DNA of 64,000 bases, taken from NCBI GenBank assembly GCA_023245895.1, contig JAHFJJ010000002.1, positions 3,348 through 67,347 of the forward strand. The letters are read 5' to 3'. This document shows, one piece after another, positions 8,111 to 24,397 of the stretch. Numbering within the stretch: the stretch's first letter is position 1; every line of letters starts with the position of its first letter. The DNA comes from Candidatus Doudnabacteria bacterium (GTDB taxonomy: Bacteria; Patescibacteriota; Doudnabacteria; UBA920). The position numbers and the translations under genes are program-made. The notes under the pieces were generated by a model. It saw only the letters and a list, made by a program, of their open reading frames with translations, made no database searches and was not told the origin of the DNA.

Positions 8111-8722
8111 CTAGGTTCTTTGCTTTCTTGGATTAACTTTCAAAATTTCCTCTCTAAAATCCGCAATATCAAAATAGTGCGTGCAGGCCGGCGGCAGTTC
8201 TTTTGCCACATGGCCGGACCTGGAAAACGCAATAACAATTTTTCCCTGGCCTCTTAAAAATTTTGCCAGATATTCAAAATCACAATCGCCGGAAAATAAA
8301 ATAAAGGTATCAAAATTATCCAAGCTAAAAGTTGCGTCTACTGCTATCTCAACATCAAAATTTGCTTTGCGATGGGGCAGTTCAGGCGTATGGTCTTGGT
8401 ATTCTTTAAGTGGTTTGGTTTCTAGCTTAAATTTTAAACTTTTTTTGAGAAAATATAAAAATTTCGTGTGGGATTCGGTATTAAACGCGGCTGAATAAAA
8501 GCTAACTTTTTGGCAATCTCCGGAACTTTTAAAGAAAGTGTTGAATTTTTGATAATCTACATTCCATCGGAGCAGTCCTGACTCCATATGCTTTAGGCTG
8601 TCCGGAATATCTTTTGGATTTACCCACATATCCTGAACCGACCTTTCTAAGTTCGCGGCATCTATATAAACAACAACCCGGCCTTTAAGCACCTGTTTTA
8701 ATTTTTCTACGTAGGTGTTCAT
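8111..8722 (-). CDS. NYN-domain (LabA-like) protein
   Basis: Has VVVYIDAANL...FDVEIAVDA...FILFSGDCDF, the conserved Asp triad pattern of PIN-like NYN domains. Confidence 0.7.
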   Translation of the reverse strand: MNTYVEKLKQVLKGRVVVYIDAANLERSVQDMWVNPKDIPDSLKHMESGLLRWNVDYQKFNTFFKSSGDCQKVSFYSAAFNTESHTKFLYFLKKSLKFKLETKPLKEYQDHTPELPHRKANFDVEIAVDATFSLDNFDTFILFSGDCDFEYLAKFLRGQGKIVIAFSRSGHVAKELPPACTHYFDIADFREEILKVNPRKQRT

Positions 8723-8957: not shown

Positions 8958-11075
8958 CTAAATTTGCCTTCGCTTATCAATCTCCTTTCGCAAAAAACCT
9001 AACGCGTAGGGCAGGGCAGTAGCCGGTTTATCTGTGGAAAATGCAAAAATATTCTTGTTTTTATCTTTCAAAGGTTCAATATAGGAAGCGGTTACGGCCT
9101 CGGCTTCTTCCTGGTCATCGCCGTATCCGATTATTAAAAAAATAACCTGGCCGTCTTCCTCAATTTGCTGCATAACCGGGGCTATGCCCTCGCGGTTGCC
9201 TTGGCCGTCCGTAAACATAATAATTATTTTGATGACGTTATCTTTATTCAAGGCTAAAGCTTCGTGGACTTGCTTAACCGCGGCCACTTCGTCAGTACCG
9301 CCGCCGACTTGCGATAAGCGGTCTACAATCTTAATTTCTTTTTCGTCGCTCAAACGCTCTTCCAGCTTACTGACGCGCTCCGCCGCGGTTGAGTATTTAG
9401 TTACGCCGACCTGGAAAGGCTGCTCTTCGTCCGGGATAAGCAGGTTTTCCGCTTCCAGGTCTTTTAAAACCAGTTTGAAACTCTCCACAATAATAACGCC
9501 CATATCGGTGGACTTTTCAATCTTTTCGCCAAACATGGACTCCGAGGTGTCGTAGAGCAGTTCAAGCTGGGTTTGCAAAAATTGCGGATTGCGCACGAGC
9601 CTCATTTTGGTATCGGGGTCAAGCTCGCCGGTTAAAATTGCGGCTACGTGCTCATATTCCAAGCCCGGCACAATTTCGCCTTCGCGCTTGAGGTATTCAA
9701 TTTTTTTGCGTCTGTCGTCTAAAAATATTTCTGCCAAAACCGCGGCAGTAGACATAATTTCCGAAGGGTATTTTTCTTTGGTCCGCTCCCAGCTTTCTAT
9801 AGATTCCTGGCGGACTTGCATGCCTTCGGCCAGGCCTCTTTGGCGGCGCGCGCGGTCTAAGTCCCGCAAGGCTTCTGCCCGCGCCGCAAGCGCGTCCGCG
9901 CCGCGGTCGTCCTTAGGCGGGGCTACTGGAACTTTAGGCCCCTCTTTGCCCAGTATGCCCTCCAGTTCTTTCATTGCCTCGCCAAACTTTTCCCCATCCT
10001 CTTTGGAAGGCGCCTGGCTGGCATATTCTTTAGCTGCTTCTTCCAGTTCTTTGAGCAACTGGTTTTTTAGTTCTTCAATTTCTGCTTTGGTCAAAGGCAC
10101 GTCCGAAGTATCCCTGCCGGGCTTACCCGGCTTGCCGCCTTTGCCTTTTTGCCCTTCGCCTTTTTGTTTTTGCCGCTCTTCTTTTCGCTTCTCCAGCTCG
10201 GCAGTCATCAGCTTAAGGTACTCCGGCAGCCAGACTTGCTCGTAAGCCTGCATTTTACGCTCTAGACTGCGTTTTTGTTCGCCCTCTTTGGCAAAATAGG
10301 TGTAAGCCTGCCAATCCATGGTTGTGGACAGGGCTCGGCTGTCAATAATCCTGCGGAACGATTTATACACATCATCATCCAATTTTTTTCCAACCTCGGG
10401 GTCTTCATTAAAACGGTGCCTTAAAATAGACTGCAAAAGCTGTTGGGGTTTGGAATAATTTTTATATGTCTCCGGCGGCTTGTCCTCGGTATTAAGCGCG
10501 CGCACCGCGTTGCGGATTATAGTATAAGGCCGCCTGCCGGCAAAGGACTCCAGCCAAACATCAGCCACGGCATTATTGACATTGCCGTGAACCGCCCCTA
10601 AAAAGCGCTGTTCAGCGTTTGCGTCCCCTCTATATGCCTCGGGTATGGGCACATGTTTTAGGTTGCCAAGTAGCCTGTCCTGCAGTTCAGTAACTTCCGG
10701 AGCGTGGTGGAAAGCTTCGTGGTAAAAAAATCCTTTAGCCTCTGCTGGCTGCCAGGGCTCTACTCCAAATTCAGGCGCGCCGGTCGCGTGGATGGGATTA
10801 TAATAAATGGTTTTAGTGTTCAAGTTCGTATAACCGGACTTTAACACGCCTGTCTGGCGGAATTCCTGTTCAAGCGCCGGGTCCGGCCGGAACGAAAACC
10901 CGCCCGAAGCGCTGGAAAGCATTTTTAAATGCTCCGGGCTAATGACCTTTTCCATTTCCAAAGGCGGCCGTCCCGGTTTTTTTTCGCCCTTCCCATCCGG
11001 CGCGTCTGGAGGAAGCGGCGGTTGGTTTTGGCCCATTTCGTATTGTGCTGATTGCTTTTCGGATTTTTCGCTCAT
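8958..11075 (-). CDS. vWA-domain protein with an N-terminal HExxH (putative metallopeptidase) region, the MoxR-partner type
   Basis: 705 aa. N-terminal FFYHEAFHH holds the HExxH motif. The C-terminal vWA has the MIDAS motifs DTSES (DxSxS), GGGTD and FTDGQGN. A central Lys/Glu-rich low-complexity linker contains GKPGKPG. Confidence 0.8.
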   Translation of the reverse strand: MSEKSEKQSAQYEMGQNQPPLPPDAPDGKGEKKPGRPPLEMEKVISPEHLKMLSSASGGFSFRPDPALEQEFRQTGVLKSGYTNLNTKTIYYNPIHATGAPEFGVEPWQPAEAKGFFYHEAFHHAPEVTELQDRLLGNLKHVPIPEAYRGDANAEQRFLGAVHGNVNNAVADVWLESFAGRRPYTIIRNAVRALNTEDKPPETYKNYSKPQQLLQSILRHRFNEDPEVGKKLDDDVYKSFRRIIDSRALSTTMDWQAYTYFAKEGEQKRSLERKMQAYEQVWLPEYLKLMTAELEKRKEERQKQKGEGQKGKGGKPGKPGRDTSDVPLTKAEIEELKNQLLKELEEAAKEYASQAPSKEDGEKFGEAMKELEGILGKEGPKVPVAPPKDDRGADALAARAEALRDLDRARRQRGLAEGMQVRQESIESWERTKEKYPSEIMSTAAVLAEIFLDDRRKKIEYLKREGEIVPGLEYEHVAAILTGELDPDTKMRLVRNPQFLQTQLELLYDTSESMFGEKIEKSTDMGVIIVESFKLVLKDLEAENLLIPDEEQPFQVGVTKYSTAAERVSKLEERLSDEKEIKIVDRLSQVGGGTDEVAAVKQVHEALALNKDNVIKIIIMFTDGQGNREGIAPVMQQIEEDGQVIFLIIGYGDDQEEAEAVTASYIEPLKDKNKNIFAFSTDKPATALPYALGFLRKEIDKRRQI

Positions 11076-11140
11076 ATGCTATTATACTTAAATTTTTTAA
11101 TTTTCGGTACTTCGTTAAGTTTACTATGTATATCTCATTT

Positions 11141-11947
11141 TTAAAACTTTTTTGATTCAGGGATTTTAGAAGCGGCAATGCCTTGGTCTCGTTCTGGCAT
11201 TACCAATTCCAAACCCTCATCACCTATTTTAATTTCTTGAGCGGCTAAAATTTTCAAGCTCCTTGCAAGTTTAATAAAATTAAACCAATCATCAGCGTCT
11301 CTATATTCCCCAAGTTTCCTCTTCATTTTTTTCCAGGTTTTTTGGTCCGGTTGACAGTCAATTGGTACGCTTAAAAGTTTAATACGCGCCGCGAATTCAA
11401 CATACTCTTCCAGGTTCGAGGTTCGCTTTTCTTCCAATTCCATTTTCATGCCTTCAATCACCCGCTTATCTATACCCAGTTCCGCATCGGGTTTGAACAA
11501 CTTTAAACTCCCCGCCTCATAAGCAAAGTTCCAAAATTTATTGGCTGAACGAAGCGCCTGATTTTTGGACCTTTTTATGCTTCTTACTCCTGCGGCTACG
11601 GCTTTTTTTATAATCTCCTGGTCTGCGCTTATTTTAAGCACCCTTAAACAAGCTAAAAAACCTACATTTTCATAGGAACCGAAATCGGTGGTGGATTTTT
11701 GTTTTAACATTGCTTCTAATCCCCGGCGCCAGCTGTCGGTTAATTGGAATTTAATATTGGGATCCAGAATTTTTAAACTTAGCATATGATCTACGCTACC
11801 TGAGCTTTGGGAAAATGATTGCATTGCCCGCCAGTCTTCCTGCGTGACTTCAGTAGCGGTGTCAAAAGTTCCCGCAGGCCTTTCCTGCTCAACGCTGAAA
11901 TTTTTTATATTCAGTTCTTCCGCCGGAATTCGCGTTTCAATAGCCAT
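11141..11947 (-). CDS. tandem-array paralog 13 (most distal) of the 'M-A/S-I-E-x-R-I ... K-x-F' family
   Basis: 268 aa. Starts MAIETRIPAEELNIKNF and ends KIPESKKF. Confidence 0.8.
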   Translation of the reverse strand: MAIETRIPAEELNIKNFSVEQERPAGTFDTATEVTQEDWRAMQSFSQSSGSVDHMLSLKILDPNIKFQLTDSWRRGLEAMLKQKSTTDFGSYENVGFLACLRVLKISADQEIIKKAVAAGVRSIKRSKNQALRSANKFWNFAYEAGSLKLFKPDAELGIDKRVIEGMKMELEEKRTSNLEEYVEFAARIKLLSVPIDCQPDQKTWKKMKRKLGEYRDADDWFNFIKLARSLKILAAQEIKIGDEGLELVMPERDQGIAASKIPESKKF

Positions 11948-11951
11948 AAAA

Positions 11952-12815
11952 TTAAAACTTTTTTACTTCGGGCAGATCTTGGGTTTTAGCCCCAACTTTA
12001 GGCTCAGGCATTTTTATTTTTAAACCCGCTTCCGTAACCCTAACCTCCTCGGCCGCAAGAATACCTGCATCGGCAATAAGCACAACAGCCTCTCTTATAT
12101 TCCCGTCGCGCAGGTAATCGCTGATTGTCGTTCTAATCCCATCCCAGGCTTTGGCCGTTACCCTTATTTCTTTTAGTACATCGGGCGCGCCGACTTTTAA
12201 CAGCATTGCGTAATTAGTAAAATTAGCCCACTCCTCCGCCTGGCCGTAATCTTTTACAGACTGCACCATTTCCAAATCCGGGTCAAGGACTTCTTCCCGC
12301 AGGTCCAAAGGCATTTTATTTGGGTACAGTACTTTTAGCGCAATTTGTGTTTCAATTTGGTTCGCCGATGTGTCGAGGCTATTTTCTTTAGCCATTTCCC
12401 ATAAACCTTCGCCGTCTATGCCGTATTGGGAAAATTTGTCAGGCGCAAAAATTTTCAGGACAGCCGCATCCTGAACCGCATAGCCCAGTACGTCGACGTC
12501 GCATAATTCCCCATCGTCCACAAATCTAGCATAATTCTTCCAAAATTGTTTTTCCACAATTTCCTGGCATTTTTCGGCTACTTCTTTAATTTTTTCCGGG
12601 TTCATTTGCAGTAAAACGGTTAAAGCCCAGGCGGGGTAGTCTTCTGTTTCAGCATATTTTGAAGAATTATATTTTTCCAAATAATCTTTAATTTGCTTCC
12701 ACTCCTCTTCTTTGACATCGCGGATCGGATCAAATTCAACAGCCATCTCCAGCCTGTCAATGCTAAAATCCCTAATATTGAGTTCTTGGGTATTGATTCT
12801 TTCTCCGATGGCCAT
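11952..12815 (-). CDS. tandem-array paralog 12
   Basis: True start MAIGERINTQELNIRDF (ATG at 12813-12815); the ORF track extends it to 12944. Ends PEVKKF. Confidence 0.8.
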   Translation of the reverse strand: MAIGERINTQELNIRDFSIDRLEMAVEFDPIRDVKEEEWKQIKDYLEKYNSSKYAETEDYPAWALTVLLQMNPEKIKEVAEKCQEIVEKQFWKNYARFVDDGELCDVDVLGYAVQDAAVLKIFAPDKFSQYGIDGEGLWEMAKENSLDTSANQIETQIALKVLYPNKMPLDLREEVLDPDLEMVQSVKDYGQAEEWANFTNYAMLLKVGAPDVLKEIRVTAKAWDGIRTTISDYLRDGNIREAVVLIADAGILAAEEVRVTEAGLKIKMPEPKVGAKTQDLPEVKKF

Positions 12816-12816
12816 A

Positions 12817-13659
12817 TTAAAAATTTTTAGTTTTAGGAACCGGGGGCGTTTCCAGGATTTTTGGTTTTGGCTTGCTTTGCAGGTGGAGTCCCGATTGGTT
12901 AATTTCAATTTGGTCTGCTGAAATAATCGCAAGTTCACACGCAAAATCCAACTGGTCTTCAGGCGGCATGCTATGAAACTTTGTTTTTATTTCTATCCAC
13001 TCGGTTTCGTCCACAGCCTGTAAGTCAAACTTGCCAGGCAAAATAACGCGCAGGACGGCCAGTTGGCTTACCAAACTCCGCCAGGACTTTTTAGAGCGGC
13101 TTAATTTAATTGAACCTTGCAACTCCGGCAAAAAGTCTTTGGCTAATTTTAGCTTGTTGTTAGGCGTTAGGATTTTTAGGTTTTTATAGACTTCCTGGGT
13201 CAGACTGCCTGAGCCGACGCCTGCACAAAATTCAATTGCTTTATTTCTCGCGGCTAGTGGCAGTAAAAAATCCGGCATAATTTTTTTAATGGAGTATGCC
13301 GCGCGGATGAGCGTATCGGTGGTAGCGGCAGTCTCCCCGTTGGAATTTTTTTCAACCAGATATTCCCAGGTTTTTTCCAGCCCTTCTCTTAATTTCGTCA
13401 TTTGACCAGAGGACAGCCTTTTTAAAGTTTCCGCCTTCAAGAAACATAAATTGCCTAAGTTTTTTAGACGGTGGGGAACAACACTGCCTGAGGCAAGCCA
13501 GGGTAAATCTTCGGCAGCTAAATTTTCAAAAACTTTCCACTCCCGCTCGTAAATATCTTTTTTCGGGTCAAAGCCCGCGGTGTTGCCGGCTTGCTCTCTC
13601 TCGATGCTCAAACCTTTAATATTTAATTCTTCCCTAGGAATTCTATATTCAATAGGCAT
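12817..13659 (-). CDS. tandem-array paralog 11
   Basis: Starts MPIEYRIPREELNIKGL and ends PVPKTKNF. Confidence 0.8.
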   Translation of the reverse strand: MPIEYRIPREELNIKGLSIEREQAGNTAGFDPKKDIYEREWKVFENLAAEDLPWLASGSVVPHRLKNLGNLCFLKAETLKRLSSGQMTKLREGLEKTWEYLVEKNSNGETAATTDTLIRAAYSIKKIMPDFLLPLAARNKAIEFCAGVGSGSLTQEVYKNLKILTPNNKLKLAKDFLPELQGSIKLSRSKKSWRSLVSQLAVLRVILPGKFDLQAVDETEWIEIKTKFHSMPPEDQLDFACELAIISADQIEINQSGLHLQSKPKPKILETPPVPKTKNF

Positions 13660-13661
13660 AT

Positions 13662-14447
13662 TTAAAAGTTTTTAGTTTGCGGGACAGGTTGCGTGCTGGT
13701 GAGCGGCACTTGTTCTTCCGCCATAACCAATTCCAGCCCCTTGTCTGTAATTTTTACTTCTTTGGCGGCTAAAATTGACATGCTATAGGCAAGCATAAGG
13801 CTGTCAAGGTCCGTTTGGACTGTTTTTTGGAGGGTTGTTTTCATTGCTTTCCAGTCAGCTTTGCTTATTGCAGTCTTGGCAAATTCTTCCGGAAACAAAA
13901 TTTTTTCCCTGGCCGAGTAGGAAGCAAATAACCTGGGGGCGTGTAATTGTTTATCGGGCTCAAATTTCATATGCTGGAGCCACATACCGGCCTTTTCCGG
14001 AAACAGGATTTTCATATTTTTTGCCATTTCCCTGTAAGTTTGGTCCTTTTTAGCCAATCTTGTGTCGTGAAGCTTTTGAATAATCTTGCCTAAATAATTG
14101 TCCAGGTTTTTTGATTTAACCACTTCCGGCCATAATTGTTTAATGGTAGCGCCCAGTGAGGCAACGTCATACCATTGGTTTCGTCTTATGGCCTCGGAAA
14201 GGTCGCGGTCAGCCGCGTTTTTTTCTTGTTCCTGCGCGGGCAAAGCGCCGGGCTGCATGGTCCTAAGTCGGGCCAAGTAAGTATAGCCGCCTCTAGAAAG
14301 ACCATTAATAGCCAATTTAATTTTCCGCCATTGTTGCGGACTCAAATCCCGCGCGGGGTTAAACACCGCCCGGGTTTCCGCCCTATGCTCGGTGTGGAAG
14401 CTTTTAATATTCAAGTCTTGTTGTGGAATTCGTTGTTCTAAGGACAT
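13662..14447 (-). CDS. tandem-array paralog 10
   Basis: True start MSLEQRIPQQDLNIKSF; ends PVPQTKNF. Confidence 0.8.
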   Translation of the reverse strand: MSLEQRIPQQDLNIKSFHTEHRAETRAVFNPARDLSPQQWRKIKLAINGLSRGGYTYLARLRTMQPGALPAQEQEKNAADRDLSEAIRRNQWYDVASLGATIKQLWPEVVKSKNLDNYLGKIIQKLHDTRLAKKDQTYREMAKNMKILFPEKAGMWLQHMKFEPDKQLHAPRLFASYSAREKILFPEEFAKTAISKADWKAMKTTLQKTVQTDLDSLMLAYSMSILAAKEVKITDKGLELVMAEEQVPLTSTQPVPQTKNF

Positions 14448-14448
14448 A

Positions 14449-15279
14449 TTAGAAGTTTTTAATTTGGGGGATTTCTGGAGCTTTTTGCATAGTATTTTTT
14501 TCAGGCATAACAATTTCCAGGCCGTTGTCGCCAATTTTTGCTTCTTTGGCGCCAAGAATGGTCATTTCTTTTAATTTATAGCACGTGTAATAAAAGTCCC
14601 CATGAATAAGGCTGGATTCAACTGACTGCTTAAAATTTTTTTTCATCTCTTTCCAGTCGCCTGGGCCTATAACCAAGGCGTCCGGATAGCTCATTTTTAA
14701 GCTGGCGGCATCATTCCTAATAAGCTCCCAATATTTTTCCCGCTTTGCCTTTTGTGTTTTAAAATCAGCTAATATAATGTCTTTTGGTACCATATATTCT
14801 GGAGTAACTTCATCCGGAAATAGGATTTTCAAATAACAGTAAGTACGGGGAGAAAAGTTGTTTCTGATAGGGTTTAATTTTATTTTTTGCCATAAAGGGG
14901 CTAGTTTGGCTGTTAGGTTTTCAGCAGCAAAAGTTTCGGGGTCCAGCCTCTTGAGTTCAGCGGCGTCGACAAAAGGGTCGGTAATACTTTGCCCGGGCTC
15001 TTCTGCCTTTAGCAAGTCTTTTGTAAATTTTGATATTATCCTTTGCCTGCAAACTTCAGCCATATCCGGGAACAGTTCAGGATTAATCCCTTTTAAGAAT
15101 GTTAAAGTTCCTATTGGCAGTGCTTGGCTGTCGGCTGTTAAAATAAACTCTCTTAACGCCTTCCATTGCTCGGGAGTAACCTCTTCCATGGGATTAAACT
15201 CGATATTTACTCCCCGCTGTTCCAGGCTGAACTCCCTGATATTCAGTTGTTCGGTATTTATCCGTTGGTCTAAGGACAT
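14449..15279 (-). CDS. tandem-array paralog 9
   Basis: True start MSLDQRINTEQLNIREF; ends PEIPQIKNF. Confidence 0.8.
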   Translation of the reverse strand: MSLDQRINTEQLNIREFSLEQRGVNIEFNPMEEVTPEQWKALREFILTADSQALPIGTLTFLKGINPELFPDMAEVCRQRIISKFTKDLLKAEEPGQSITDPFVDAAELKRLDPETFAAENLTAKLAPLWQKIKLNPIRNNFSPRTYCYLKILFPDEVTPEYMVPKDIILADFKTQKAKREKYWELIRNDAASLKMSYPDALVIGPGDWKEMKKNFKQSVESSLIHGDFYYTCYKLKEMTILGAKEAKIGDNGLEIVMPEKNTMQKAPEIPQIKNF

Positions 15280-15280
15280 A

Positions 15281-16093
15281 TTAAAAATTTTTAATTTTTG
15301 GCAGGGTTGATTTAGTTTCGGCTTCAAAAGCCGCGGGTCGGGTTATTTCCAAACCATTTTCGGTAATCTCTATTGCAGGGGCTGTGGCAATAAGCAAGTT
15401 AAAGGCATCTCCCACAAGTTCAGAAGGATGAGTTTTGTTTTTCTTTAGGTGTTTTTTCATTGCTTGGACAAATTCTGGCCCAAGCTCGGGCTTAAACCAA
15501 GGGTCAATAGTTCTAATACAGGCGCCATATTTAAAAATATCTGAAACCGAGGAGCCTGGCCTGGCTTTTAGAGCATCAAAGTCTTCCTTAAAAATTACAT
15601 CCGGCCCCGCATCTAAGTTGGGCAGGAAAATATAATCGTTTAATTGCAAACCGGTTATTTTCATATCGGCAAAAACTTGCATACTGTAGAAAGGGGCGTC
15701 GCTTTTCAGAAATTTATCTATTGAGTTAACTTCTTTCGCCGTAAAATTAAATTCATAGTTTATTGGCTTTAAAATTTTTAGTGCCGCTAGCGTATCGAAA
15801 AATTGATCCCAATGCTCTAACATCCTGCTTTCTCTCACTACCGCCATAGTTCTCTCTTCCCATTCAGGGTCGAAGTTAATTGCGATTGCCGGATTTAAGA
15901 GCTTTATTTTAGAAGCAATCCGGGCGGAGTCATCGGGCTTAAATTCTTTATTTTCCTCCATTACCTGCAAAAGATCGTCCCACTGCTCAGCACTAATATC
16001 CCGCTCTGGGTCAAAGCTCTCGTTATTCCACTCCTGAAAATTAAAGTCTTTAATATTTAGTTGTTCGGTATTTATTCGTTTGTCTAAGGACAT
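15281..16093 (-). CDS. tandem-array paralog 8
   Basis: Starts MSLDKRINTEQLNIKDF and ends LPKIKNF. Confidence 0.8.
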   Translation of the reverse strand: MSLDKRINTEQLNIKDFNFQEWNNESFDPERDISAEQWDDLLQVMEENKEFKPDDSARIASKIKLLNPAIAINFDPEWEERTMAVVRESRMLEHWDQFFDTLAALKILKPINYEFNFTAKEVNSIDKFLKSDAPFYSMQVFADMKITGLQLNDYIFLPNLDAGPDVIFKEDFDALKARPGSSVSDIFKYGACIRTIDPWFKPELGPEFVQAMKKHLKKNKTHPSELVGDAFNLLIATAPAIEITENGLEITRPAAFEAETKSTLPKIKNF

Positions 16094-16094
16094 A

Positions 16095-16886
16095 TTAAAA
16101 AGTTTTAAATTGCGGGAGAGCGCCGGCAGGCTCAGCCAGCTCGCCCGAGGAAATGGTTAATTCCAGGCCATTGTCTGTTATTTTTATTTCCTCGGCCGAA
16201 ATTATGCCCATATAGTAGGCCAGTTTAATGGCCCTTAAATAATCACGGCTGTTTTGGCGCTTTTCAAAAAGAATTTGGAATTCGTATTTCATTTTTTTCC
16301 AGTTTTCTTTGGACACAGGGGCTTTTTTAAATTTTTCCGGCGCGACAATTTTTTGGCTGGCCTTAAAGCCGGCGTAGGTTTCGGCAAATTGGTATTCAGG
16401 TTCGGTATTAAGCTCTGGAATTTTAAATTTTTCTGCTTTGTCCGGAAACAGTATGGTTAATTCCCTGGCCATTTGTATCCTATTGACTTCGCCAAACTTT
16501 CCTTCCAAAGCCAGCGCCAGTTGGTCCAAATCACCTTCAAGGCCTATGGCTTTAAACTCTTTTGGATAAAGCTGCTTCATCGCAAGCGCTATTTTTGGCA
16601 CTGCCCGCCAGTTGTCTTTGGCCATCAAAGCCTCTAGTTCGTCGCTAACAACCGACTTGGTGGAAGGCTTGTCTACTATTTTGTATAAACAGCCCGGCCT
16701 TATAGTCCTTAGTTCCGCCAAAGCCGTCCAGGACAAATGGGTATTCATAAAACTTTCAATAATTTTCCATTGCTCGGGCGTAATATCCCTGTTTAAATTA
16801 AACTCCTGGGGTGCCTCCTGGACGCCAAGGTTTAGGTCCTTTATATTTAAATCTTCTGAATCTAATACGCGGTTTTCAATAGCCAT
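16095..16886 (-). CDS. tandem-array paralog 7
   Basis: Starts MAIENRVLDSEDLNIKDL and ends ALPQFKTF. Internal repeats include AMKQLYPKEF and LTILFPDKAEKF. Confidence 0.8.
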   Translation of the reverse strand: MAIENRVLDSEDLNIKDLNLGVQEAPQEFNLNRDITPEQWKIIESFMNTHLSWTALAELRTIRPGCLYKIVDKPSTKSVVSDELEALMAKDNWRAVPKIALAMKQLYPKEFKAIGLEGDLDQLALALEGKFGEVNRIQMARELTILFPDKAEKFKIPELNTEPEYQFAETYAGFKASQKIVAPEKFKKAPVSKENWKKMKYEFQILFEKRQNSRDYLRAIKLAYYMGIISAEEIKITDNGLELTISSGELAEPAGALPQFKTF

Positions 16887-16888
16887 AG

Positions 16889-17731
16889 TTAGAAATTTTT
16901 AATTTTCGGAATTGCCGGCGTTGCCTGGCTTATTTGGGCGTTGTTTGACAGCTCCATGCCGTGGTTTGTAAATTTCACCTCTTTGGCCGCCATAGTAGCC
17001 AGCCATTCGGCTAAGTTTATATACTGTAAACAGTCATGGCCGCTTTGGCAATTGTCTAATTTTTCAAAAAGTTGGGTTTTCATAGCTTCCCAGTTTTTTG
17101 CGGTAATTTTTACTTTCGCGAATTCTTCCGGAAACAAAATTTTCAACAGGGCCGCGCTTTTGCAAAACATATACCAATTGCCGCCTTTATTTTGCGCCAT
17201 ATCTTGTTTCAATAGCGAAACGTCGTTGTCCTTCAACAGGTCTTTTTCTTGGCCAGGGAAAAGAATTTTAAAATAAAGAACGTTGTCTAAATCTACTGTA
17301 CCCCGGCCTGTTATTTTAGGCTTCCTTAAGGCTTCGGCCATTCGTTCGCGATATTGCTCGGCCAATGCTTGCGAAAACCTTTCCGGAAATAAGGTTTTCA
17401 TTTCGGCAAAATTACCAAGCAAATTATCATAGCCCATTTCTCCCCGCTCGCAATGGCGTAAAATGGTTTTGGCGAATTTATCCATCTTCTGCCATTTTTT
17501 ATTGTCAGATTTTTCAAATAGTCTTTTTGGTTCAATCACCTGCAAACTTGCCAAATAAAGGTCAACATTTTCTTTTCGCGCAGACCGTTCCATTTTATCC
17601 CATTGCGCTTTGCTCAAATCCCTTACCGGATCAAAAGGTACATCCTTAGAAGACTCCGCCGAGGGCAACTGCTCCAGGTTTAACGAGCTAATATTCAATT
17701 CTGCCGGGTTAACCCGCTGTTCTATGGACAT
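16889..17731 (-). CDS. tandem-array paralog 6
   Basis: True start MSIEQRVNPAELNISSL; ends PAIPKIKNF. Confidence 0.8.
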   Translation of the reverse strand: MSIEQRVNPAELNISSLNLEQLPSAESSKDVPFDPVRDLSKAQWDKMERSARKENVDLYLASLQVIEPKRLFEKSDNKKWQKMDKFAKTILRHCERGEMGYDNLLGNFAEMKTLFPERFSQALAEQYRERMAEALRKPKITGRGTVDLDNVLYFKILFPGQEKDLLKDNDVSLLKQDMAQNKGGNWYMFCKSAALLKILFPEEFAKVKITAKNWEAMKTQLFEKLDNCQSGHDCLQYINLAEWLATMAAKEVKFTNHGMELSNNAQISQATPAIPKIKNF

Positions 17732-17732
17732 A

Positions 17733-18530
17733 TTAAAATTTTTTAATTTCAGGAATACGCGAACCAAGTTCCGGTAATTTTTGTACTGCCGGCGACAGTT
17801 CCAGTCCCCTATTCGTAAATTTCAGCTCGCTCGCGGAAATAATAGCCATGTCCCTGGCCAAAGTTATGGCTTTGTCTAAATTCGTGCCTTTTAATTCCGC
17901 GCGCAAGTCTTGTTGCATTCCTTTCCAGGCATTGTCGCCGATGTTTTGAATATTAAAACGTCCAGGAAATAAAATCCGTAATGTGGCCATATCTACAGCT
18001 AAGCTTGGCCAATTTTTGAGTTTTTTTGAAAGACCAATGTTTAGGGTAATAGCAGTAAAATCTTCTTCGTTTACTTCCACTCTTTCAGGCAGCAACCTTT
18101 TCATTCGAGTAGCAAGGTCAAAATAAAGAGCGTCATTCCAATGCCTTAACGCAATGTTTTCCAAGTCCTCGCGGGCAATAAATTTTTCCCACTGGTCAGG
18201 CCATAACTGCCTAATTGACGCGGCGACATCCAAAAAAACCAGCTGGGCTTGAACGTGATTTACTTCCTTTACTCTCCTGGAAATCTGCTCGCTTAGTTCC
18301 GGGTTGGTTGCCGGATTGGGGAGGTTGGGAAAGCTTTCAGGCCTTATTAAGCGCAAATCCGCAATTCTTTCCCAGACATGGTAAGTTTGCTCTACTTCCT
18401 TCGCGTCTGCTTCCATGCGCCGCCAGTCGTCGGGTTTAATATCAAATTCCAGCAAGCCTTTTTCCGGAGTCTGGATATTAAAGTTCTTTATATTCAATTC
18501 TGCCGGGTTAACCAGCTGTTCTATGGACAT
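17733..18530 (-). CDS. tandem-array paralog 5
   Basis: Starts MSIEQLVNPAELNIKNF and ends RIPEIKKF. Confidence 0.8.
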   Translation of the reverse strand: MSIEQLVNPAELNIKNFNIQTPEKGLLEFDIKPDDWRRMEADAKEVEQTYHVWERIADLRLIRPESFPNLPNPATNPELSEQISRRVKEVNHVQAQLVFLDVAASIRQLWPDQWEKFIAREDLENIALRHWNDALYFDLATRMKRLLPERVEVNEEDFTAITLNIGLSKKLKNWPSLAVDMATLRILFPGRFNIQNIGDNAWKGMQQDLRAELKGTNLDKAITLARDMAIISASELKFTNRGLELSPAVQKLPELGSRIPEIKKF

Positions 18531-18531
18531 A

Positions 18532-19365
18532 TTAAAAATTTTTAATTTCGGGCGTCGGTGGAGTCGCGGTTTCTGATTGTTTTTTTGGCATCACCAACTC
18601 CAAGCCCTGCTCTGTAATTTTAATTTCCTGGGCGGCTATCATTGCAAGGTCGCGGATCATGCCGGCTTGGTCCACGCTTTTAGTCTTTCCCTGGGCCAAT
18701 AAAAACTTTAAATGACTTCGCCAAATTTCCCAGGTTTGGCAATCAACTTTTAACTTTTTGGCGTCATCCGGAAGCAAAGCCTTAAAGGCCGCAAAATACG
18801 CGAGTTTTAAGCTAAAATCATCAGCCATAACCTGTTGCAAGGGTTCATTTATAGGTTCTCCTTTTGCCAGAGTTTCCAACCAGGGATCTGTGGGTATTTT
18901 ATCTAAACTGAGTTCACCCGCCCGGTCGGGAAACAGAACCCTCATATCAATTAAAAATCCCGGACCTACGTCGCCTGATGCCAGCTGCTCATTTCCTTTA
19001 CGCCACAGTTTCGGGGCGGTTCTAAAAGTTAGCGGTTCAAATTTATCCGGAAAAAGTTGCTTAAACCCCGCGTATTCCGTAACCACGGAATACCAAAGGT
19101 TTTCGTCAATTAACCCTTGAATCCTCCTTTTAAAAATATCACCCTCCGGCACCGGAATATGGGTAAACTTATCCGGCCGTACTTGCCGAAGCACAGCCAG
19201 CATGCCATAAAAGGCGGGATTGTCAGATATGGTTTGGCTTAAAAGTTCCCAATCCCTTTCGCTCACGTCCCGCTTAGGATCAAATTCAACGCCGGCCTGC
19301 GGCTGTTCCAGGTTCAGTTCTTTTATATTCAATTCTTGCCGATCAATCCGTTTTTCTATGGACAT
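18532..19365 (-). CDS. tandem-array paralog 4
   Basis: True start MSIEKRIDRQELNIKEL; ends PTPEIKNF. Confidence 0.8.
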   Translation of the reverse strand: MSIEKRIDRQELNIKELNLEQPQAGVEFDPKRDVSERDWELLSQTISDNPAFYGMLAVLRQVRPDKFTHIPVPEGDIFKRRIQGLIDENLWYSVVTEYAGFKQLFPDKFEPLTFRTAPKLWRKGNEQLASGDVGPGFLIDMRVLFPDRAGELSLDKIPTDPWLETLAKGEPINEPLQQVMADDFSLKLAYFAAFKALLPDDAKKLKVDCQTWEIWRSHLKFLLAQGKTKSVDQAGMIRDLAMIAAQEIKITEQGLELVMPKKQSETATPPTPEIKNF

Positions 19366-19366
19366 A

Positions 19367-20203
19367 TTAAAAATGTTTAGCTTCCGGCAGCGGCGAGTCC
19401 GCTGTGAAATTTGTTTCCGGTAAAATAATAACTCCGCGTTCATCAATATGTGCGTCCGGGCAGGATAAAATTTTTAAATAACTTCCGACCCTCATCAGTT
19501 CGTAGGGAGCCCCCTGTTCTAGCCAAAATTTTTTAATGCCGCTCCAGTCTCGCGCTTTAATTAGGGGTTTTACATCCGGAGCCATTAACTTTAACGCTAC
19601 TGCTTTGGCTAAATCCGCACTTAAATGGAATTTTGAGTTGGGTGTTATAGCGAAAGATGTTTTTTTCATCTCCTCTATGGCTTTTTCCATAACTTGAGTC
19701 CATCGCATGCCTTTTAAATGCTGGGGAAAAACTTGCACCGCTTCCAAATGCTCATAGGGAAACGCAAGCGAACTTTCAATGCGGTCGTCAACCAGCTTCC
19801 AGTTCTCTTCCGAATTCCACTTTTTCCAAACATCGGTCCGCTCAGGAAACAGCCTTTTATATGCAGACGCGATACCTAAAAATTGCTGTACAGAAGGGCG
19901 GCTGCCTGTAGTCAGAGGCATTTCATTTGCCGCGGCTTCAAGAGCGCTGGCTAATTTTTCTGAAACTTGCGCATCGGGAAACAAAAATTTATAATTCGCC
20001 AAATAATCGGGCTTTTGCCCGAAAGCCGGCCTGCCTTCTTCCCAGTCACCGCTTATCCTAAGAAAGTTTTGCAGGCAGACCTCTCTGGTATTTTTTGGAA
20101 TTTCAACCTCGGGGTTAAATTTAAACCCGTCCACAGGCTCCTGTTCAAAGCTCAGCTCCTGGACTTTTAATTCGTTCGGGTCAATGCGTTTTTCAATGGC
20201 CAT
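19367..20203 (-). CDS. tandem-array paralog 3
   Basis: Starts MAIEKRIDPNELKVQEL and ends PLPEAKHF. Confidence 0.8.
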   Translation of the reverse strand: MAIEKRIDPNELKVQELSFEQEPVDGFKFNPEVEIPKNTREVCLQNFLRISGDWEEGRPAFGQKPDYLANYKFLFPDAQVSEKLASALEAAANEMPLTTGSRPSVQQFLGIASAYKRLFPERTDVWKKWNSEENWKLVDDRIESSLAFPYEHLEAVQVFPQHLKGMRWTQVMEKAIEEMKKTSFAITPNSKFHLSADLAKAVALKLMAPDVKPLIKARDWSGIKKFWLEQGAPYELMRVGSYLKILSCPDAHIDERGVIILPETNFTADSPLPEAKHF

Positions 20204-20204
20204 A

Positions 20205-21011
20205 TTAAAAATGTTTAGTTTCCGGAGGGCCGGTTTTGTTGTCAGTCTGCATTTCTGTTAAATTGCCCAACTCCAGGCCATTGTTTGTAACTTTTACTGT
20301 AGAAGCCGAGGCAATAACTGCGTTTACCGCATTTTCTGAAACCGGGAAAAGATCTGTTAATTCTGTCCCTGCCTTTAGTACTCCTTTTATAGCTTGGAAG
20401 TGTTTGGGTGTTAATTCAGGGTCAAAATTAGGTTTAACAATTCTCATACTGGCGGCGAAGCGGAATAGTTTTTCAATGGGCGCCTTCTCTTTCATTTCAG
20501 CCATGGTGGCTTCCAAAACACCCCAAAACTCCGGCGTAAGATATTTGTCCATAGGCAGGCCAATAATTTTTATTTCCGCTAAATGCAGCAATTGATAATA
20601 AGGTTCCATATTCGGGTCTGTCAGGAACACTTCTATAGACTCCGCTTCTTCCTGGCTGAATACAAATTTTTTTGAAGGCTGTAGAATCTTGATTGCTAAA
20701 GCTAGCGGTAAAAAGTCGCCCCACTCTTCGTCTTTTTTGTCAGTTTGTAATTCGTTTTCAATTTTAGTAAATTCTTCAGTCTCGATTTTTGGAGCTTCGT
20801 TTGGATACAAGATTTTGAGGTTTGCAGACATTAACGCGACATAATATCTACTACTTCCAGCCCTATAAGATTCTAAATCTCTAAACAAGCCCTGTTTTTG
20901 GCTTTGACTGAAGTCTCTTTTTGGATTAAAAAGGAAAGGCTGTTGCTTTTCGTTGAGGCTCAGTTCTTTGATATTCAGCCCTTCTTGGCTTATTCGTTTT
21001 CCAATAGGCAT
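20205..21011 (-). CDS. tandem-array paralog 2
   Basis: True start MPIGKRISQEGLNIKEL; ends GPPETKHF. Confidence 0.8.
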   Translation of the reverse strand: MPIGKRISQEGLNIKELSLNEKQQPFLFNPKRDFSQSQKQGLFRDLESYRAGSSRYYVALMSANLKILYPNEAPKIETEEFTKIENELQTDKKDEEWGDFLPLALAIKILQPSKKFVFSQEEAESIEVFLTDPNMEPYYQLLHLAEIKIIGLPMDKYLTPEFWGVLEATMAEMKEKAPIEKLFRFAASMRIVKPNFDPELTPKHFQAIKGVLKAGTELTDLFPVSENAVNAVIASASTVKVTNNGLELGNLTEMQTDNKTGPPETKHF

Positions 21012-21012
21012 A

Positions 21013-21876
21013 TTAAAAATGTTTAATTTGTGGGGCGTCAAATTTTGGCTTTCCGATGGGTGTAACCGGCATAACAAATTTAATCCTATTGTCTTCAACC
21101 ACAATGCGTTCCGCGGCCAAAGCTTGCAAAGTTGCCGCAACATTTAAAAATGTAGTCCAATTGCCCCTCTTCCGCCATCCTTCAAGGATGTCCCTTAGTT
21201 TTTTTACAGGCGGCAATTTCCCCTGCCAATGTGCGGCAAGTTCCGGGAAAGCGTACTTAATAGCGGCGGTTCTATTGATAAGCACGGAAGTTTCGTTTAA
21301 GTGTTTTTTGTTGTCACTATATTGTTTGTAAGCCCATTCCCAGGCAGTGGCACAAAACTGTTTTGCTTCTTCCGGCAGAGGTTCGGTCGGATAACAAATT
21401 GCGAAATTTTTAATTAACTTTACACCCTCATCAATCCAGTTGGTTGTCGTGTAATACAAAACGCTTTCTTTTAAAAGCTTAAATATTTCCGGGTTTTTTA
21501 AAATTTGCGCGCAATTCTGCGGGAACAAAATTTTCATCATCATTAGAGCCTCTGCTAGTTTTCCCGGTTTGCTTTCAGTTAAGTGTTGTTCTATTATAGT
21601 TTTTAAATTTTCTTCCTTAACAAAAGTTTTATTCTCATATGGAAAGTGCAAAAGCTGCGCGGGCGCCAAATAGTAGATGCTGGCGTACAAGTCATTTTCC
21701 GCTCTGGGCGCGCCGGAAGCTTTTTTAAAACTTACCAAAGACTCCAATATCCTGGTTTTGTCTGAATCTGTTATGTCGCGATTGGCATCAAATAAAATTT
21801 CAGTACTTTGGGAGCTTTCCAAAGATAAATCCTGAATTTTTATTTCTTGCGGATCAATCCGTGTTTCTATGGCCAT
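21013..21876 (-). CDS. tandem-array paralog 1 (first after the ATPase)
   Basis: True start MAIETRIDPQEIKIQDL (ATG at 21874-21876); ends DAPQIKHF. Confidence 0.8.
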   Translation of the reverse strand: MAIETRIDPQEIKIQDLSLESSQSTEILFDANRDITDSDKTRILESLVSFKKASGAPRAENDLYASIYYLAPAQLLHFPYENKTFVKEENLKTIIEQHLTESKPGKLAEALMMMKILFPQNCAQILKNPEIFKLLKESVLYYTTTNWIDEGVKLIKNFAICYPTEPLPEEAKQFCATAWEWAYKQYSDNKKHLNETSVLINRTAAIKYAFPELAAHWQGKLPPVKKLRDILEGWRKRGNWTTFLNVAATLQALAAERIVVEDNRIKFVMPVTPIGKPKFDAPQIKHF

Positions 21877-21919
21877 AGTCTTAAAAAACAAGCCGGAGTT
21901 TCCGCTCCGGCTCGTTAGG

Positions 21920-24043
21920 TTAAAATTGCTTTGCCGCGGGCACGAATTCGGTGGTGGCAAAACCCTGCAAACCGCGGATTTGCTTTATTATTTCTTCAAA
22001 ATCTTTTTTAGTGTCTTCCGAAGCCTTTTTGCGCTCATCATAAGCTTCCTGGCCAATATAGCCCATGATTTTGTCTTTTAATTTTTCGTCATCCATAAGA
22101 ATGCCTACGCTGGTAAGCATATCCACAACCGCTTTGGGGTTTTCACTGCCTTCAAATTGCTTGTAGCTTTCCACCATCACCTGGTAAACCGCTTCGTCAA
22201 AGGACATTTTGCTTGCCTGATAGAGCGGTTTTTTGTTTTTTGCGTCGCGGTAGAGAACAAGTTTTTCCCCAAGGTCCCGGATGGTACGGTAAGAAAGCGG
22301 AATCGTCTGCCTTTTGCCTTCCAAAAAAGAGCGTATTTTAGGAAAGGCTTCGTTAATTAAGGTGTAAAGTTTTCCTAAGTCTTCTTTAGAGCGCAAGAAT
22401 GTGCCGTCGGGGTTAGCCAGCGCGGAAAGCGACACCAACATTTCCTCTTTGCGTGGCGGGTAGGGAATTTCCATAACTTTGCCTTCGGCGCGCGAAGCCA
22501 AAGCTTCCGGGACTTCAAAGACACCATGCTTGCGTTCAATGTTGGCGGTAAAATACATCCTCCAATTATCGGGAATCGGAATACGCTCATCGTTATCCGC
22601 AAAATACCAATCCTCCCCGGGTTTGGCAGTTAAAAGCCCGTAAATTAAGCTCCAGTTTTTGTTTTTGTTAAATTCGTCCATTAGCACGCTGTCCCCCCGC
22701 CTTAGGGCCGCTGTAATAACCCCGTCGCGCCAGCCGTTCTTTTTGACAATATGCGCGAACTTTTTGGCCAACTCCCCGCGGAAAGCCGCCTCGGCCATGT
22801 TTACAACTTTGGTTTGTAAGTCGCGCAATTGCGGTACATCTGCTGCCTTGGTTTTTTCAGCTGCCTGCAAAGATTCCTGTATTTGGGCTATTGCTGTAAC
22901 AGCCGCCTCGTCCGGATTGAGATGCAAAGTTTCCCCAAGGAGCTTGCTGTGTTCGGAAACAAAATCCCTAAATTTTTCAGGATCCAGTCCTCGAAGGTCA
23001 TCGCTCAGCTTATTATAGTACTCAGTTGGGTCTTTAAATTCCAAAGATTTTGAACCGTAGAGCATGTAGCGGGTTACATCTTCGGACAAATCAAGATAAA
23101 CATAATTCCTGCCTTTTTCTTCCAGGTAATGGCGGACAAGCGTGGTCTTGCCCACGCCCGGAGGCCCAACTAAAACGCCGCCGACTGTGGTGCGCTGGTG
23201 CTGGGTTTCCCATTCATGGAGCATGTTTAAAGAATGGATGACGCTTTGCGTTTCCACTACATCTTCGCCTTCTGAAAATTGTTTTAAAACAGTTTCTATT
23301 TCTTCTTTGCCGGAAAAATACCTGACCATGGGGTCTTCCCACAGTTCCTCTATTTTAGCCCTGGCCGCGGCGAGTTCTTCTTGCAGCTGCTTTTTTGAAC
23401 GCGGAAGTTTGCGCTCTTTTTGAGTTTTAAATTCTTTTAAGGCGTTTACATACTCCTCTGATTCCTCATCAAAAATAGTTTTTAGCGCCTGTTCAATATT
23501 GTTGACATCGTCAGTTTGGACTTCGTCTGAAACCGACTGGCGCTGGCTTACGGCCTCGGCGCGGGCGTAAGAAATATCATCCAGGCCTTCGGCGCTGGCA
23601 AAGCTTGCCTGCTCAAGCAAGCCTGAAAGTTGGGTCGCGGTTTTAAGGCTATTTTTAAACTCTAAATAGTCAAGCTTCGAGCGGATGTATTCCCTATAGG
23701 CTTTTTCAAAAGACAGCTTTTCTTCGTCGCCCAGCCAGCCTTCAATTTCCGTTTTTTTGGCCTTATAATGTTGGGCGGCTAAAAATCTGTCATCGGCGCT
23801 TTTTGCAGACTTAACAATGCTCCTCAAATCCTGGGCTTGTTTTATCAAGAGCTGGAATTGTTCAATAGCTTTAAGGCGCAAATCACGTTCAAGTTCCGGG
23901 ACATTTTCCAAAGCTTGCTCGCGGGCTTCCCTTAAAACCCTATTTGCTTCAGGCTGTGTTTTTGTCTTTCTGCTTTCCTTTGCGGCGGCTTTTACTTCGG
24001 GCACTTCCCCACCCAAATGACGCGGCAATAGACGTTCGGGCAT
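21920..24043 (-). CDS. AAA+ ATPase (MoxR/AAA_5-like core with a long coiled-coil N-terminal region), first gene of the operon
   Basis: 707 aa. Walker A is GPPGVGKT and Walker B is DSVLMDEFNK, the DE-x-N-R/K signature of the MoxR/dynein-related clade. About 160 aa are inserted between the two Walker motifs. The C-terminus ends ...VPAAKQF, a K-x-F tail like that of the downstream paralogs. Confidence 0.8.
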   Translation of the reverse strand: MPERLLPRHLGGEVPEVKAAAKESRKTKTQPEANRVLREAREQALENVPELERDLRLKAIEQFQLLIKQAQDLRSIVKSAKSADDRFLAAQHYKAKKTEIEGWLGDEEKLSFEKAYREYIRSKLDYLEFKNSLKTATQLSGLLEQASFASAEGLDDISYARAEAVSQRQSVSDEVQTDDVNNIEQALKTIFDEESEEYVNALKEFKTQKERKLPRSKKQLQEELAAARAKIEELWEDPMVRYFSGKEEIETVLKQFSEGEDVVETQSVIHSLNMLHEWETQHQRTTVGGVLVGPPGVGKTTLVRHYLEEKGRNYVYLDLSEDVTRYMLYGSKSLEFKDPTEYYNKLSDDLRGLDPEKFRDFVSEHSKLLGETLHLNPDEAAVTAIAQIQESLQAAEKTKAADVPQLRDLQTKVVNMAEAAFRGELAKKFAHIVKKNGWRDGVITAALRRGDSVLMDEFNKNKNWSLIYGLLTAKPGEDWYFADNDERIPIPDNWRMYFTANIERKHGVFEVPEALASRAEGKVMEIPYPPRKEEMLVSLSALANPDGTFLRSKEDLGKLYTLINEAFPKIRSFLEGKRQTIPLSYRTIRDLGEKLVLYRDAKNKKPLYQASKMSFDEAVYQVMVESYKQFEGSENPKAVVDMLTSVGILMDDEKLKDKIMGYIGQEAYDERKKASEDTKKDFEEIIKQIRGLQGFATTEFVPAAKQF

Positions 24044-24261
24044 ATATTTTGGTTAATTTAAAGTTGGTTTCTTTTGTTGATTTTAGGCTAAAACACCCTT
24101 TAATTATAATATAAATTTTGTTATTTTGCAAAAAGGCTTTTATTATAGGCAATCCGAGCTTATTCCCTTAAAGTAAAAAATTGATTTCAGCCCACAAACA
24201 CAATGGGCTGCGCTAAGCGCAGCCCGAATTCAAGCCTTAAAATCTTCTTCTTGTAGTATTA

Positions 24262-24337
24262 TGGAGCCCAAGTGCGGAATTGAACCGCAGACCTTCTCCT
24301 TACCATGGAGATGCTCTACCAACTGAGCTACTTGGGC
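24262..24337 (-). tRNA. tRNA-Thr (anticodon GGU)
   Basis: Reverse complement reads GCCCAAGTAGCTCAGTTGGTAGAGCATCTCCATGGTAAGGAGAAGGTCTGCGGTTCAATTCCGCACTTGGGCTCCA. A TATAAT sits 7 nt upstream. Confidence 0.85.
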
Positions 24338-24387: not shown

Positions 24388-24397
24388 ACAGGCAGAA

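Follow-up and report, generated by a model that had tools for sequence, protein, structure and literature searches.

A MoxR-type ATPase and an HExxH-vWA protein encoded with a tandem array of tagged, hypervariable paralogs in the Candidate Phyla Radiation

A window of 64,000 nucleotides from a genome of Candidatus Doudnabacteria bacterium possesses, at 8958-24043 on the minus strand, 15 consecutive genes. They encode an ATPase, 13 paralogous proteins and a protein combining an HExxH motif with a von Willebrand factor A (vWA) domain, hereafter called the hub. An earlier reading made from the letters alone (the sequence-only reading) had delimited the same 15 minus-strand genes, and the open reading frames (ORFs) agree with it. 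The ATPase and the hub, together referred to as the engine, are of a known kind. What is new is the tandem repertoire of hypervariable paralogs tagged at both ends, the fusion of a zincin-like domain to a vWA domain, and a C-terminal tail shared by the ATPase and the paralogs.

Conservation of the three components across loci

The neighbourhoods of related loci were annotated with hidden Markov models (HMMs) built in this analysis; L007-L012, which are generic AAA+ matches obtained through the Walker-A pattern, were left out. ATPase, hub and paralogs were adjacent in the window and in L002, L003, L005, L013-L021, L023, L024, L026 and L027. In the distant branch L025, whose ATPase is 31% identical, the ATPase, the hub and one paralog-like gene lie in a row, and L022 ends at the vWA gene. 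In each locus with sufficient flank, the hub gene stands beside a tandem paralog array, and the ATPase gene is present wherever the contig range reaches it. The partnership which the sequence-only reading had proposed is thus kept, the trio being together in every related locus with enough flank. The array counts 5 members in L016, 11 in L002 and L026 and 14 in L019, at least 12 in L003 and L013, at least 15 in L005/L017 and at least 9 in L027. The largest, with at least 21 paralogs, is found in a Daviesbacteria genome (L024). Gene order is variable, the array preceding or following the hub gene, or being divergent from the ATPase gene, while membership is constant. All-against-all comparison of the remaining neighbours revealed no other recurrent gene family, apart from a class of short tagged proteins described below, and no membrane or secretion component recurs in the neighbourhoods. 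In total, 70 homologs of the ATPase (31-61% identity) and 53 of the vWA-HExxH protein (37-59% identity) were collected, and many of them pair up on contigs of the same length. Named homologs come from Parcubacteria and Daviesbacteria, and in the databases searched the system appears, by sequence, to be confined to the Candidate Phyla Radiation (CPR)/Patescibacteria. Full-text literature searches did not find a description of the system in CPR.

Conserved tags at both ends of the paralogs

An exhaustive search of representative proteins with a profile of the 13 window paralogs collected 1,768 clusters (50% identity) at E<=1e-3 and 1,182 at E<=1e-10; in a word-indexed search, the paralog profile recovered two of the window's own proteins and nothing else. 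In 141 representatives of the family, the ends are far better conserved than the core. The N-terminal tag (N-tag) has the consensus ..(p)erINIkdLtiEePek...FDPErDITeEDW, in which N14, I15, L18, E21, F29 and D30 are 74-99% conserved. The C-terminal tail (C-tail) reads h-P-[EQ]-x-[KR]-x-F-COOH, with proline at position -6 in 127/141 representatives, lysine or arginine at -3 in 132/141 and phenylalanine at -1 in 127/141. All 13 paralogs of the window end in P-x-x-K-x-F. The pattern P..[KR].[FY]-stop is present in 14/14 ORFs of the ATPase and paralogs and in 2 of the 714 other stop-delimited frames of the window, both of which are non-coding noise. This distribution, along with the 1,768 representatives collected by profile, shows that the pattern is not due to chance. 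In the window, the invariant proline uses all four codons, and the conserved arginine and leucine use four to five. Such scrambling of synonymous codons indicates that the tags are conserved at the protein level, and recent gene conversion was ruled out as the reason for their conservation.

Among 15 related loci, 124 ORFs carry the tail and all 124 belong to the system. The HMMs identify 120 of them as paralogs or ATPases. The remaining four are proteins of 139-146 aa (L005 5027-5446 and 7904-8344, L017 1601-2041 and L019 8455-8883), which possess both tags on an unrelated core without Pfam match; the window has no member of this class. The occurrence of both tags on an unrelated core of ~140 aa shows that they behave as portable signals.

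Divergence and turnover of the repertoire

The engine and the paralogs differ greatly in their rate of divergence. The ATPases of the window and L002 share 61% identity and their hubs 58%, and no paralog has a one-to-one partner; the best paralog score across the two loci is 71 bits, compared with as much as 119 bits for pairs inside the window. For L015 and L017, hub identity is 76%, while paralogs at syntenic positions share only 27-34% and resemble one another no more than they resemble other members of the arrays. With 58-76% identity in the engine and 20-35% in the paralogs, which have no orthologs, the repertoire turns over or diverges several-fold faster than the engine. The locus pairs at hand are either ~100% identical or too diverged for alignment at the DNA level.

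Direct evidence of birth-and-death turnover is found in the 65-nt gap between paralog 13 and the vWA gene (11076-11140). It contains a 24-nt paralog tail without stop, GAAGTACCGAAAATTAAAAAATTT, which reads E-V-P-K-I-K-K-F (11090..11113, minus strand; read from the junction sequence, with coordinates counted from the gap start at 11140), followed by TATAAT. This relic looks like the remnant of a lost 14th member of the array whose stop is gone.

Family and predicted fold of the paralogs

The starts of the paralogs were set by the conserved M[ASP][IL][EGD]x[RL][IV], which gives lengths of 261-287 aa. Counted from the ATPase side, all on the minus strand, they are paralog 1 (21013..21876, 287 aa, tail PQIKHF), paralog 2 (20205..21011, 268 aa, PETKHF), paralog 3 (19367..20203, 278 aa, PEAKHF), paralog 4 (18532..19365, 277 aa, PEIKNF), paralog 5 (17733..18530, 265 aa, PEIKKF), which is identical to database protein P0001, paralog 6 (16889..17731, 280 aa, PKIKNF), paralog 7 (16095..16886, 263 aa, PQFKTF), paralog 8 (15281..16093, 270 aa, PKIKNF), paralog 9 (14449..15279, 276 aa, PQIKNF), paralog 10 (13662..14447, 261 aa, PQTKNF), paralog 11 (12817..13659, 280 aa, PKTKNF), paralog 12 (11952..12815, 287 aa, PEVKKF) and paralog 13 (11141..11947, 268 aa, PESKKF). 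They are mutually 15-35% identical. Searches of Pfam, NCBIfam, PHROGs, PADLOC and, by profile, the PDB sequences gave no match for the paralog family, in agreement with the sequence-only reading, which had been unable to assign the 13 proteins to any known family.

Paralog 7 was the member chosen for a structure model, computed with AlphaFold2 (AF2) from the alignment of the 13 sequences (predicted local distance difference test, pLDDT, 83; predicted template modelling score, pTM, 0.80). In this model residues 1-24 and the last ~14 residues are disordered, and the region between them forms five repeats, with ~10 helices in all, and then a C-terminal beta-hairpin. The consensus of the 141 representatives also consists of five repeats of ~42 aa, with the motif W..F...A..mKILfPe...eL. 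This scaffold motif accounts for nearly all conserved core positions, and the only conserved core elements outside the repeats are FDPE..W and the beta-hairpin beside the tags. No conserved catalytic-looking polar residue was present in the core of this consensus. On the basis of the model, the core is predicted to be alpha/alpha-toroid-like. The N-tag, the presence of the tail on the ATPase too and the construction of the paralogs from five repeats go beyond what the sequence-only reading had noticed.

Profile-profile comparison of the paralogs with the ATPase and with the hub gave probabilities <1%, so the tail common to ATPase and paralogs does not come from a shared domain. Longer family members and long ATPases were checked for domain fusions, and nothing informative was found. 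None of the 15 proteins of the system has a transmembrane segment or a signal peptide, and a membrane or secreted location through classical signals was rejected, as no hydrophobic segment in these proteins would suit a membrane helix or signal peptide. Comparison of the paralog 7 model with viral folds (BFVD) gave a best E of 0.63 and a TM-score <=0.23, and the hub alignment had no relative among viral contigs (IMG/VR). Phage structural proteins, which the sequence-only reading had named as a characterised family that the paralogs might match, and a phage origin in general were rejected on these nulls, on that of PHROGs and on the housekeeping flanks; no characterised family was matched, and no viral fold either.

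The ATPase and its tail

The ATPase (21920..24043, minus strand, 707 aa, ending in VPAAKQF-COOH) is, as judged by its sequence, an AAA+ protein of MoxR/AAA_5 type. The sequence-only reading had placed it in this clade from GPPGVGKT and VLMDEFNK, and it indeed falls there: AAA_5 is its best Pfam match (E 4e-11; 43.5 bits, the cut-off being 22) and falls into two parts, between which lies an insert of ~100 residues. The same match is found in the homologs P0026, P0050 and P0009. Weaker matches belong to the same clade, namely NCBIfam GvpN (partial, residues 435-535) and the CobS-like phrog_249. The protein is composed of a helical N-terminal region of ~270 aa, Walker A (GPPGVGKTT), the ~100-aa insert, Walker B (VLMDEFNK), sensor-1 (FTAN), ASR with the arginine finger, and SYRTIRD (sensor 2). 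The catalytic columns G293-T301, D456-E457, N501, R518 and R586/R589 are invariant in 23 homologs of 30-62% identity. The stretch DEFNK..WSLIYGLLTAKPGEDWYFADNDERIPIPDNWRMYFTAN resembles the DEINR...pre-sensor-1 hairpin pattern of MoxR. PDB sequence searches with the ATPase matched the P-loop region and nothing beyond. The ATPase is presumably a hexamer.

The C-terminal tail VPAAKQF resembles the tails of the paralogs. Such a tail ends 33 of 66 full-length ATPase homologs and none of the 52 hub homologs; the ATPases of L026 and L027 are without it while their paralogs retain it. In all seven genomes where both ATPase and paralogs carry the tail, the ATPase has at -3 the residue of its own paralogs, be it lysine or arginine. 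Closer agreement is seen in L005, with QKQI in the ATPase and QKQF in the paralogs, and in L024, with PESRKF and PE.RKF, respectively. This genome-specific flavour of the tail, a feature of the sequences, suggests a common receptor for ATPase and paralogs.

A few further resemblances were noted. ATPase homologs share P-E-R-L-I-P-x-H-x-G-x-E within residues 1-20, loosely like ..ERxINIKDLxIEEP of the paralog N-tag, and the N-domain of the ATPase has one LxALxxIYPE stretch like the paralog repeat motif. Comparison of ATPase and paralogs by hhalign gave no support for homology (probability <1%). In the database protein P0009 (1009 aa), an ATPase is in frame with a full paralog (residues 720-1009) and the tail is at the end; the entry could be a true fusion or come from read-through in gene calling.

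The hub protein

The hub (8958..11075, minus strand, 705 aa) shows YHEAFHH near the N-terminus and DTSES, GGGTD and FTDGQGN in the vWA domain. These are the HExxH motif and the metal ion-dependent adhesion site (MIDAS) which the sequence-only reading had recognised in the last gene, and Pfam VWA matches residues 506-658 (E 4.5e-12). The protein is laid out as an N-domain (~40-300), long helices and a low-complexity linker rich in lysine, glutamic acid and glycine (~264-460), a pre-vWA segment REGEIVPGLEYE and the vWA domain (~500-705). In 26 homologs, H119, E120, H123 and H124 (HEAGHH) of the N-domain are invariant, followed ~50 residues downstream of HExxH by the equally invariant N168, D172, W174 and E176. 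Also invariant in these homologs are R464..G466..P470-G471-L472-E473 of the pre-vWA segment and the complete MIDAS, formed by D509, S511, S513, T594 and D623. In the AF2 model (pLDDT 79), the HExxH helix (110-122) comes after three short strands and is followed by very long helices, a disordered stretch rich in lysine, glutamic acid and glycine, and the vWA domain from ~500. The position of the HExxH helix after strands resembles the layout of zincins, and the N-domain is on sequence and model a candidate metallopeptidase.

Among the 26 homologs, CobT_C matches nine and VWA_CoxE three in Pfam. The modelled vWA domain is closest to the MIDAS domain of Rea1/MDN1 (midasin) and to NorD, with 205-217 residues aligned compared with 165-183 for ordinary vWA domains; the longer alignment hints at extra elements which the hub vWA would share with Rea1 and NorD. 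The vWA domain is thus, as judged by motifs and model, of the AAA-coupled kind. The nearness to the midasin and NorD MIDAS and the CobT_C matches bear out the MoxR-vWA pairing made in the sequence-only reading.

Possible function of the system

We tentatively favour, with a little less than even confidence and largely by analogy, a reading in which a MoxR-MIDAS-zincin engine handles a hypervariable repertoire of tag-docked binding modules, the paralogs being adaptors or sensors in conflict or host interaction. From the parts described above, the following binding and catalytic steps can be inferred. The system would be cytoplasmic and composed of a MoxR/AAA_5 ring, a MIDAS-vWA hub with a zincin-like domain, and the paralog repertoire. 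The paralogs would be co-translated, hypervariable binding modules of five alpha/alpha-toroid-like repeats, which plug into the engine by two disordered end peptides, the acidic N-tag (..NIxDLxhEEP..FDPE..) and the C-tail hPEx[KR]xF-COOH. The MIDAS metal could capture the N-tag through one of its acidic residues, or else the terminal carboxylate, comparable with Rea1 on Rsa4/Ytm1 and with NorD on the carboxylates of cNOR; the MIDAS of NorD binds target carboxylates and its vWA domain plugs the AAA pore (PMC9976466). The aromatic C-terminus may dock on the AAA ring or on the hub, comparable with the extreme C-terminus of NorD, which docks on the NorQ ring at its post-sensor-1 loop and in which loss of two residues abolishes the complex (PMC13036017). 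ATP hydrolysis would pull on or remodel the docked module along with whatever is bound to it, and the HExxH domain would clip the tag or the captured target. The combination of a constant docking peptide with a hypervariable scaffold devoid of catalytic residues, lacking orthologs and varying in copy number favours adaptors or sensors over enzymes for maturation. Judged from sequence comparison, fast evolution and absence of orthology also seem to suit a repertoire for recognition more than enzymes awaiting maturation.

Several observations weigh against the adaptor or sensor reading. Half of the ATPase homologs are without the tail while the paralogs keep it, which makes the tail dispensable on the ATPase. 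None of the 26 hub homologs matches a peptidase family in Pfam, and the fold match of the hub N-domain was not separable from the vWA matches. PADLOC returned no defence-system match. Moreover, the fast evolution of the paralogs could result from weak constraint on a helical scaffold and not from an arms race. A wider form of the proposal is rather unlikely: a lineage-wide, tag-directed handling system in which a split midasin-like AAA-MIDAS machine with a zincin would read both tags on toroid binders and on other cores, as an innate recognition or effector set against hosts or phages.

The paralogs might instead be end products which the MoxR-vWA pair matures, activates or assembles, through insertion of a cofactor or metal or through conformational activation, with the tags as chaperone handles; the precedents would be CbbQO with Rubisco, NorQD with cNOR, and RavA-ViaA. 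This, the client view of the sequence-only reading, is also unlikely, as no polar or metal-binding residues are conserved in the paralog core, the lack of orthology and the copy number of 5 to at least 21 are unlike conserved enzymes, and the same tags are found on an unrelated small core. Somewhat less likely again is export or delivery, in which the paralogs and the ~140-aa tagged proteins would be effectors or surface proteins of an episymbiont, the tags targeting signals, and the engine an unfoldase and signal-clipping chaperone feeding a translocon encoded elsewhere. CPR bacteria live attached to hosts, the tags at both termini are portable between unrelated cores, the rapid lineage-specific diversification is typical of host-interaction proteins, and the HExxH domain could remove a signal. 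Set against this, the neighbourhoods have no recurrent membrane or secretion component, the proteins have neither signal peptides nor transmembrane segments, the ATPase is itself often tailed, and MoxR-type rings are not known to thread substrates (PMC9976466).

The tight TAA-N-ATG junctions between paralog genes suggest translational coupling and a roughly equimolar output, which would suit subunits of a heteropolymer (a filament, ring or lattice) joined head-to-tail by contacts of tag and core. Here the ATPase, which has the tail of the subunits, would nucleate or cap the polymer by that tail and the engine would assemble or disassemble it, and FDPE..W with the beta-hairpin next to the tags could form the receptor site. 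We consider such self-assembly improbable because copy number and identity vary between genomes, half of the ATPases have no tail, and nothing in the AF2 monomer model points to strand exchange. Least probable is that the zincin cleaves precursors and frees one of the conserved end peptides, N- or C-terminal, to act as a signal or toxin, in parallel with the FxSxx-COOH peptide-processing modules on some MoxR-vWA conflict systems. The grammar would be the same, with MoxR, vWA, a zincin and rapidly diverging proteins bearing conserved C-terminal peptides (PMC7159879, section 24), and the HExxH motif is invariant. However, the precursors would be folded repeat proteins of 260-300 aa instead of small peptides, the window and neighbourhoods have no enzyme that modifies peptides, for instance a radical S-adenosylmethionine (SAM) enzyme, 13 genes would yield nearly one peptide, and the ATPase would have to count as a precursor too.

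Relation to known systems

In known MoxR-vWA pairs, the ring is hexameric and bears a single vWA protein, a finger of which enters the pore. Compared with NorQ-NorD, CbbQ-CbbO, RavA-ViaA and CobS-CobT, the ATPase described here is larger (707 aa), with the N-terminal extension of ~270 aa and the ~100-aa insert, and the hub has an N-domain with HExxH. The partners also differ, the chaperone pairs serving one conserved enzyme complex and the present engine being encoded with 5 to at least 21 hypervariable tagged paralogs in the operon. The MIDAS of midasin grips an acidic residue of its ligands. Unlike midasin/Rea1 (MDN1) acting on Rsa4/Ytm1 (NLE1/WDR12), ring and MIDAS are here on separate proteins, and the ligands would be disordered terminal peptides on repeat proteins instead of ubiquitin-like (UBL) domains. 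There is no link to ribosome assembly here, and homology is claimed only for the vWA and AAA_5 folds.

The closest published grammar is that of the ternary conflict systems of Kaur, Burroughs, Iyer and Aravind 2020 (PMC7159879), which likewise possess a MoxR-vWA core and a variable third component. Peptidase domains are sometimes fused to their vWA protein, comparable with the zincin-like domain of the hub, and in some of these systems there is a zincin along with proteins that diverge rapidly and keep a conserved C-terminal peptide (PMC7159879, section 24). In contrast to them, the third component here is none of VMAP, iSTAND, FtsH or beta-propeller, genes for which are absent from the neighbourhoods; it is made up of many alpha/alpha-repeat paralogs in tandem, tagged at both ends. 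The present hosts are CPR bacteria, a group left out of the statistics of that study.

With the alpha/alpha toroid (six-hairpin) proteins, such as squalene-hopene cyclase, prenyltransferase beta subunits, transcobalamin and the C3d thioester domain, the paralogs have no sequence-level relationship: they possess only five repeats, are 5-12% identical and are without the catalytic or ligand-binding motifs of those families. Short terminal peptides steer variable proteins to one machine in the peroxisomal targeting signals PTS1/PTS2, encapsulin cargo peptides and the HbYX tails of the proteasome, and the C-terminal aromatic residue is critical. The likeness to these is an analogy of logic only, as the motif here is hPEx[KR]xF and no compartment or protease ring is involved.

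CPR/Patescibacteria genomes are ~1 Mb in size, and most of their lineage-specific genes are unexplained. With 15-25 kb, the system takes up ~2% of a CPR genome; it is present in both the Parcubacteria and the Microgenomates (Daviesbacteria) branches and accounts for ~1,800 unannotated paralog clusters at 50% identity. Engine, two short tags and repertoire make up a defined and testable module and a route into CPR cell biology. It widens the MoxR-vWA paradigm, in which a chaperone has a single target, to an engine having many tagged partners that evolve fast, and it may offer a bacterial split analogue for the way in which midasin-type MIDAS domains grip their ligands. If the wider, lineage-wide proposal is true, CPR bacteria would have a repertoire functionally like F-box or nucleotide-binding leucine-rich repeat (NLR) receptor-adaptor arrays on a MoxR engine; as a recognition or effector set, it would bear on the dealings of episymbionts with hosts and phages.

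Gene junctions and surroundings of the locus

All 12 junctions between paralogs consist of TAA, 1-4 nt and ATG. The sequence-only reading had extended the TAA-N-ATG arrangement to the whole set of genes; it stands for these 12 and does not hold at the two outer junctions, which are the 65-nt gap before the vWA gene and a 43-nt gap between the ATPase gene and paralog 1. The latter contains a GC-rich, terminator-like or attenuator hairpin, GAGCCGGAG-CGGAAA-CUCCGGCUU, followed by six U (21877..21919, minus strand). RNA folding gave it -22.4 kcal/mol (z -4.1), and none of 200 shuffles was as stable. It may set the ratio of ATPase to paralog expression. An equivalent hairpin is missing in L002, where the ATPase-paralog junction is 1 nt. 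A promoter-like site, TTGCAA-17-TATAAT (24103..24132, minus strand), lies ~60 nt upstream of the ATPase start codon, with 10/12 consensus matches and by consensus match alone. The single transcription unit assumed in the sequence-only reading is weakened by the hairpin after the ATPase gene and the TATAAT-bearing gap before the vWA gene, which leave one transcript possible and not established.

The paralog junction is nearly fixed as AAA-NNN-TTT-TAA-T-ATG without a Shine-Dalgarno sequence (for example 20203-20205 and 18530-18532), which suggests coupling by termination and reinitiation. The stop codon is TAA and the lysine at -3 is AAA in 13/13 paralogs, and the final phenylalanine is TTT in 11/13.

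The locus is surrounded by ordinary chromosomal genes, including rpsB, tsf, prfA, dnaE, thrS, cysS, dnaB, ftsW and four tRNAs. A tetratricopeptide repeat (TPR) gene (24398-25156) lies upstream; a role for it was dropped because in other genomes it does not neighbour the system. The gene directly downstream of the hub encodes an NYN-domain protein, a predicted RNase (8111-8722, minus strand), and is not kept beside the system elsewhere. Between the TPR gene and the ATPase promoter region, two strong hairpins (24205-24389, minus strand) are placed around tRNA-Thr(GGU) (24262-24337). The window also has two sizeable ORFs without Pfam match, one of 331 aa (4435-5430, plus strand) and one of 625 aa (58897-60774, minus strand), the latter with the glycosylation genes YfhO, PMT and GT2 as neighbours.

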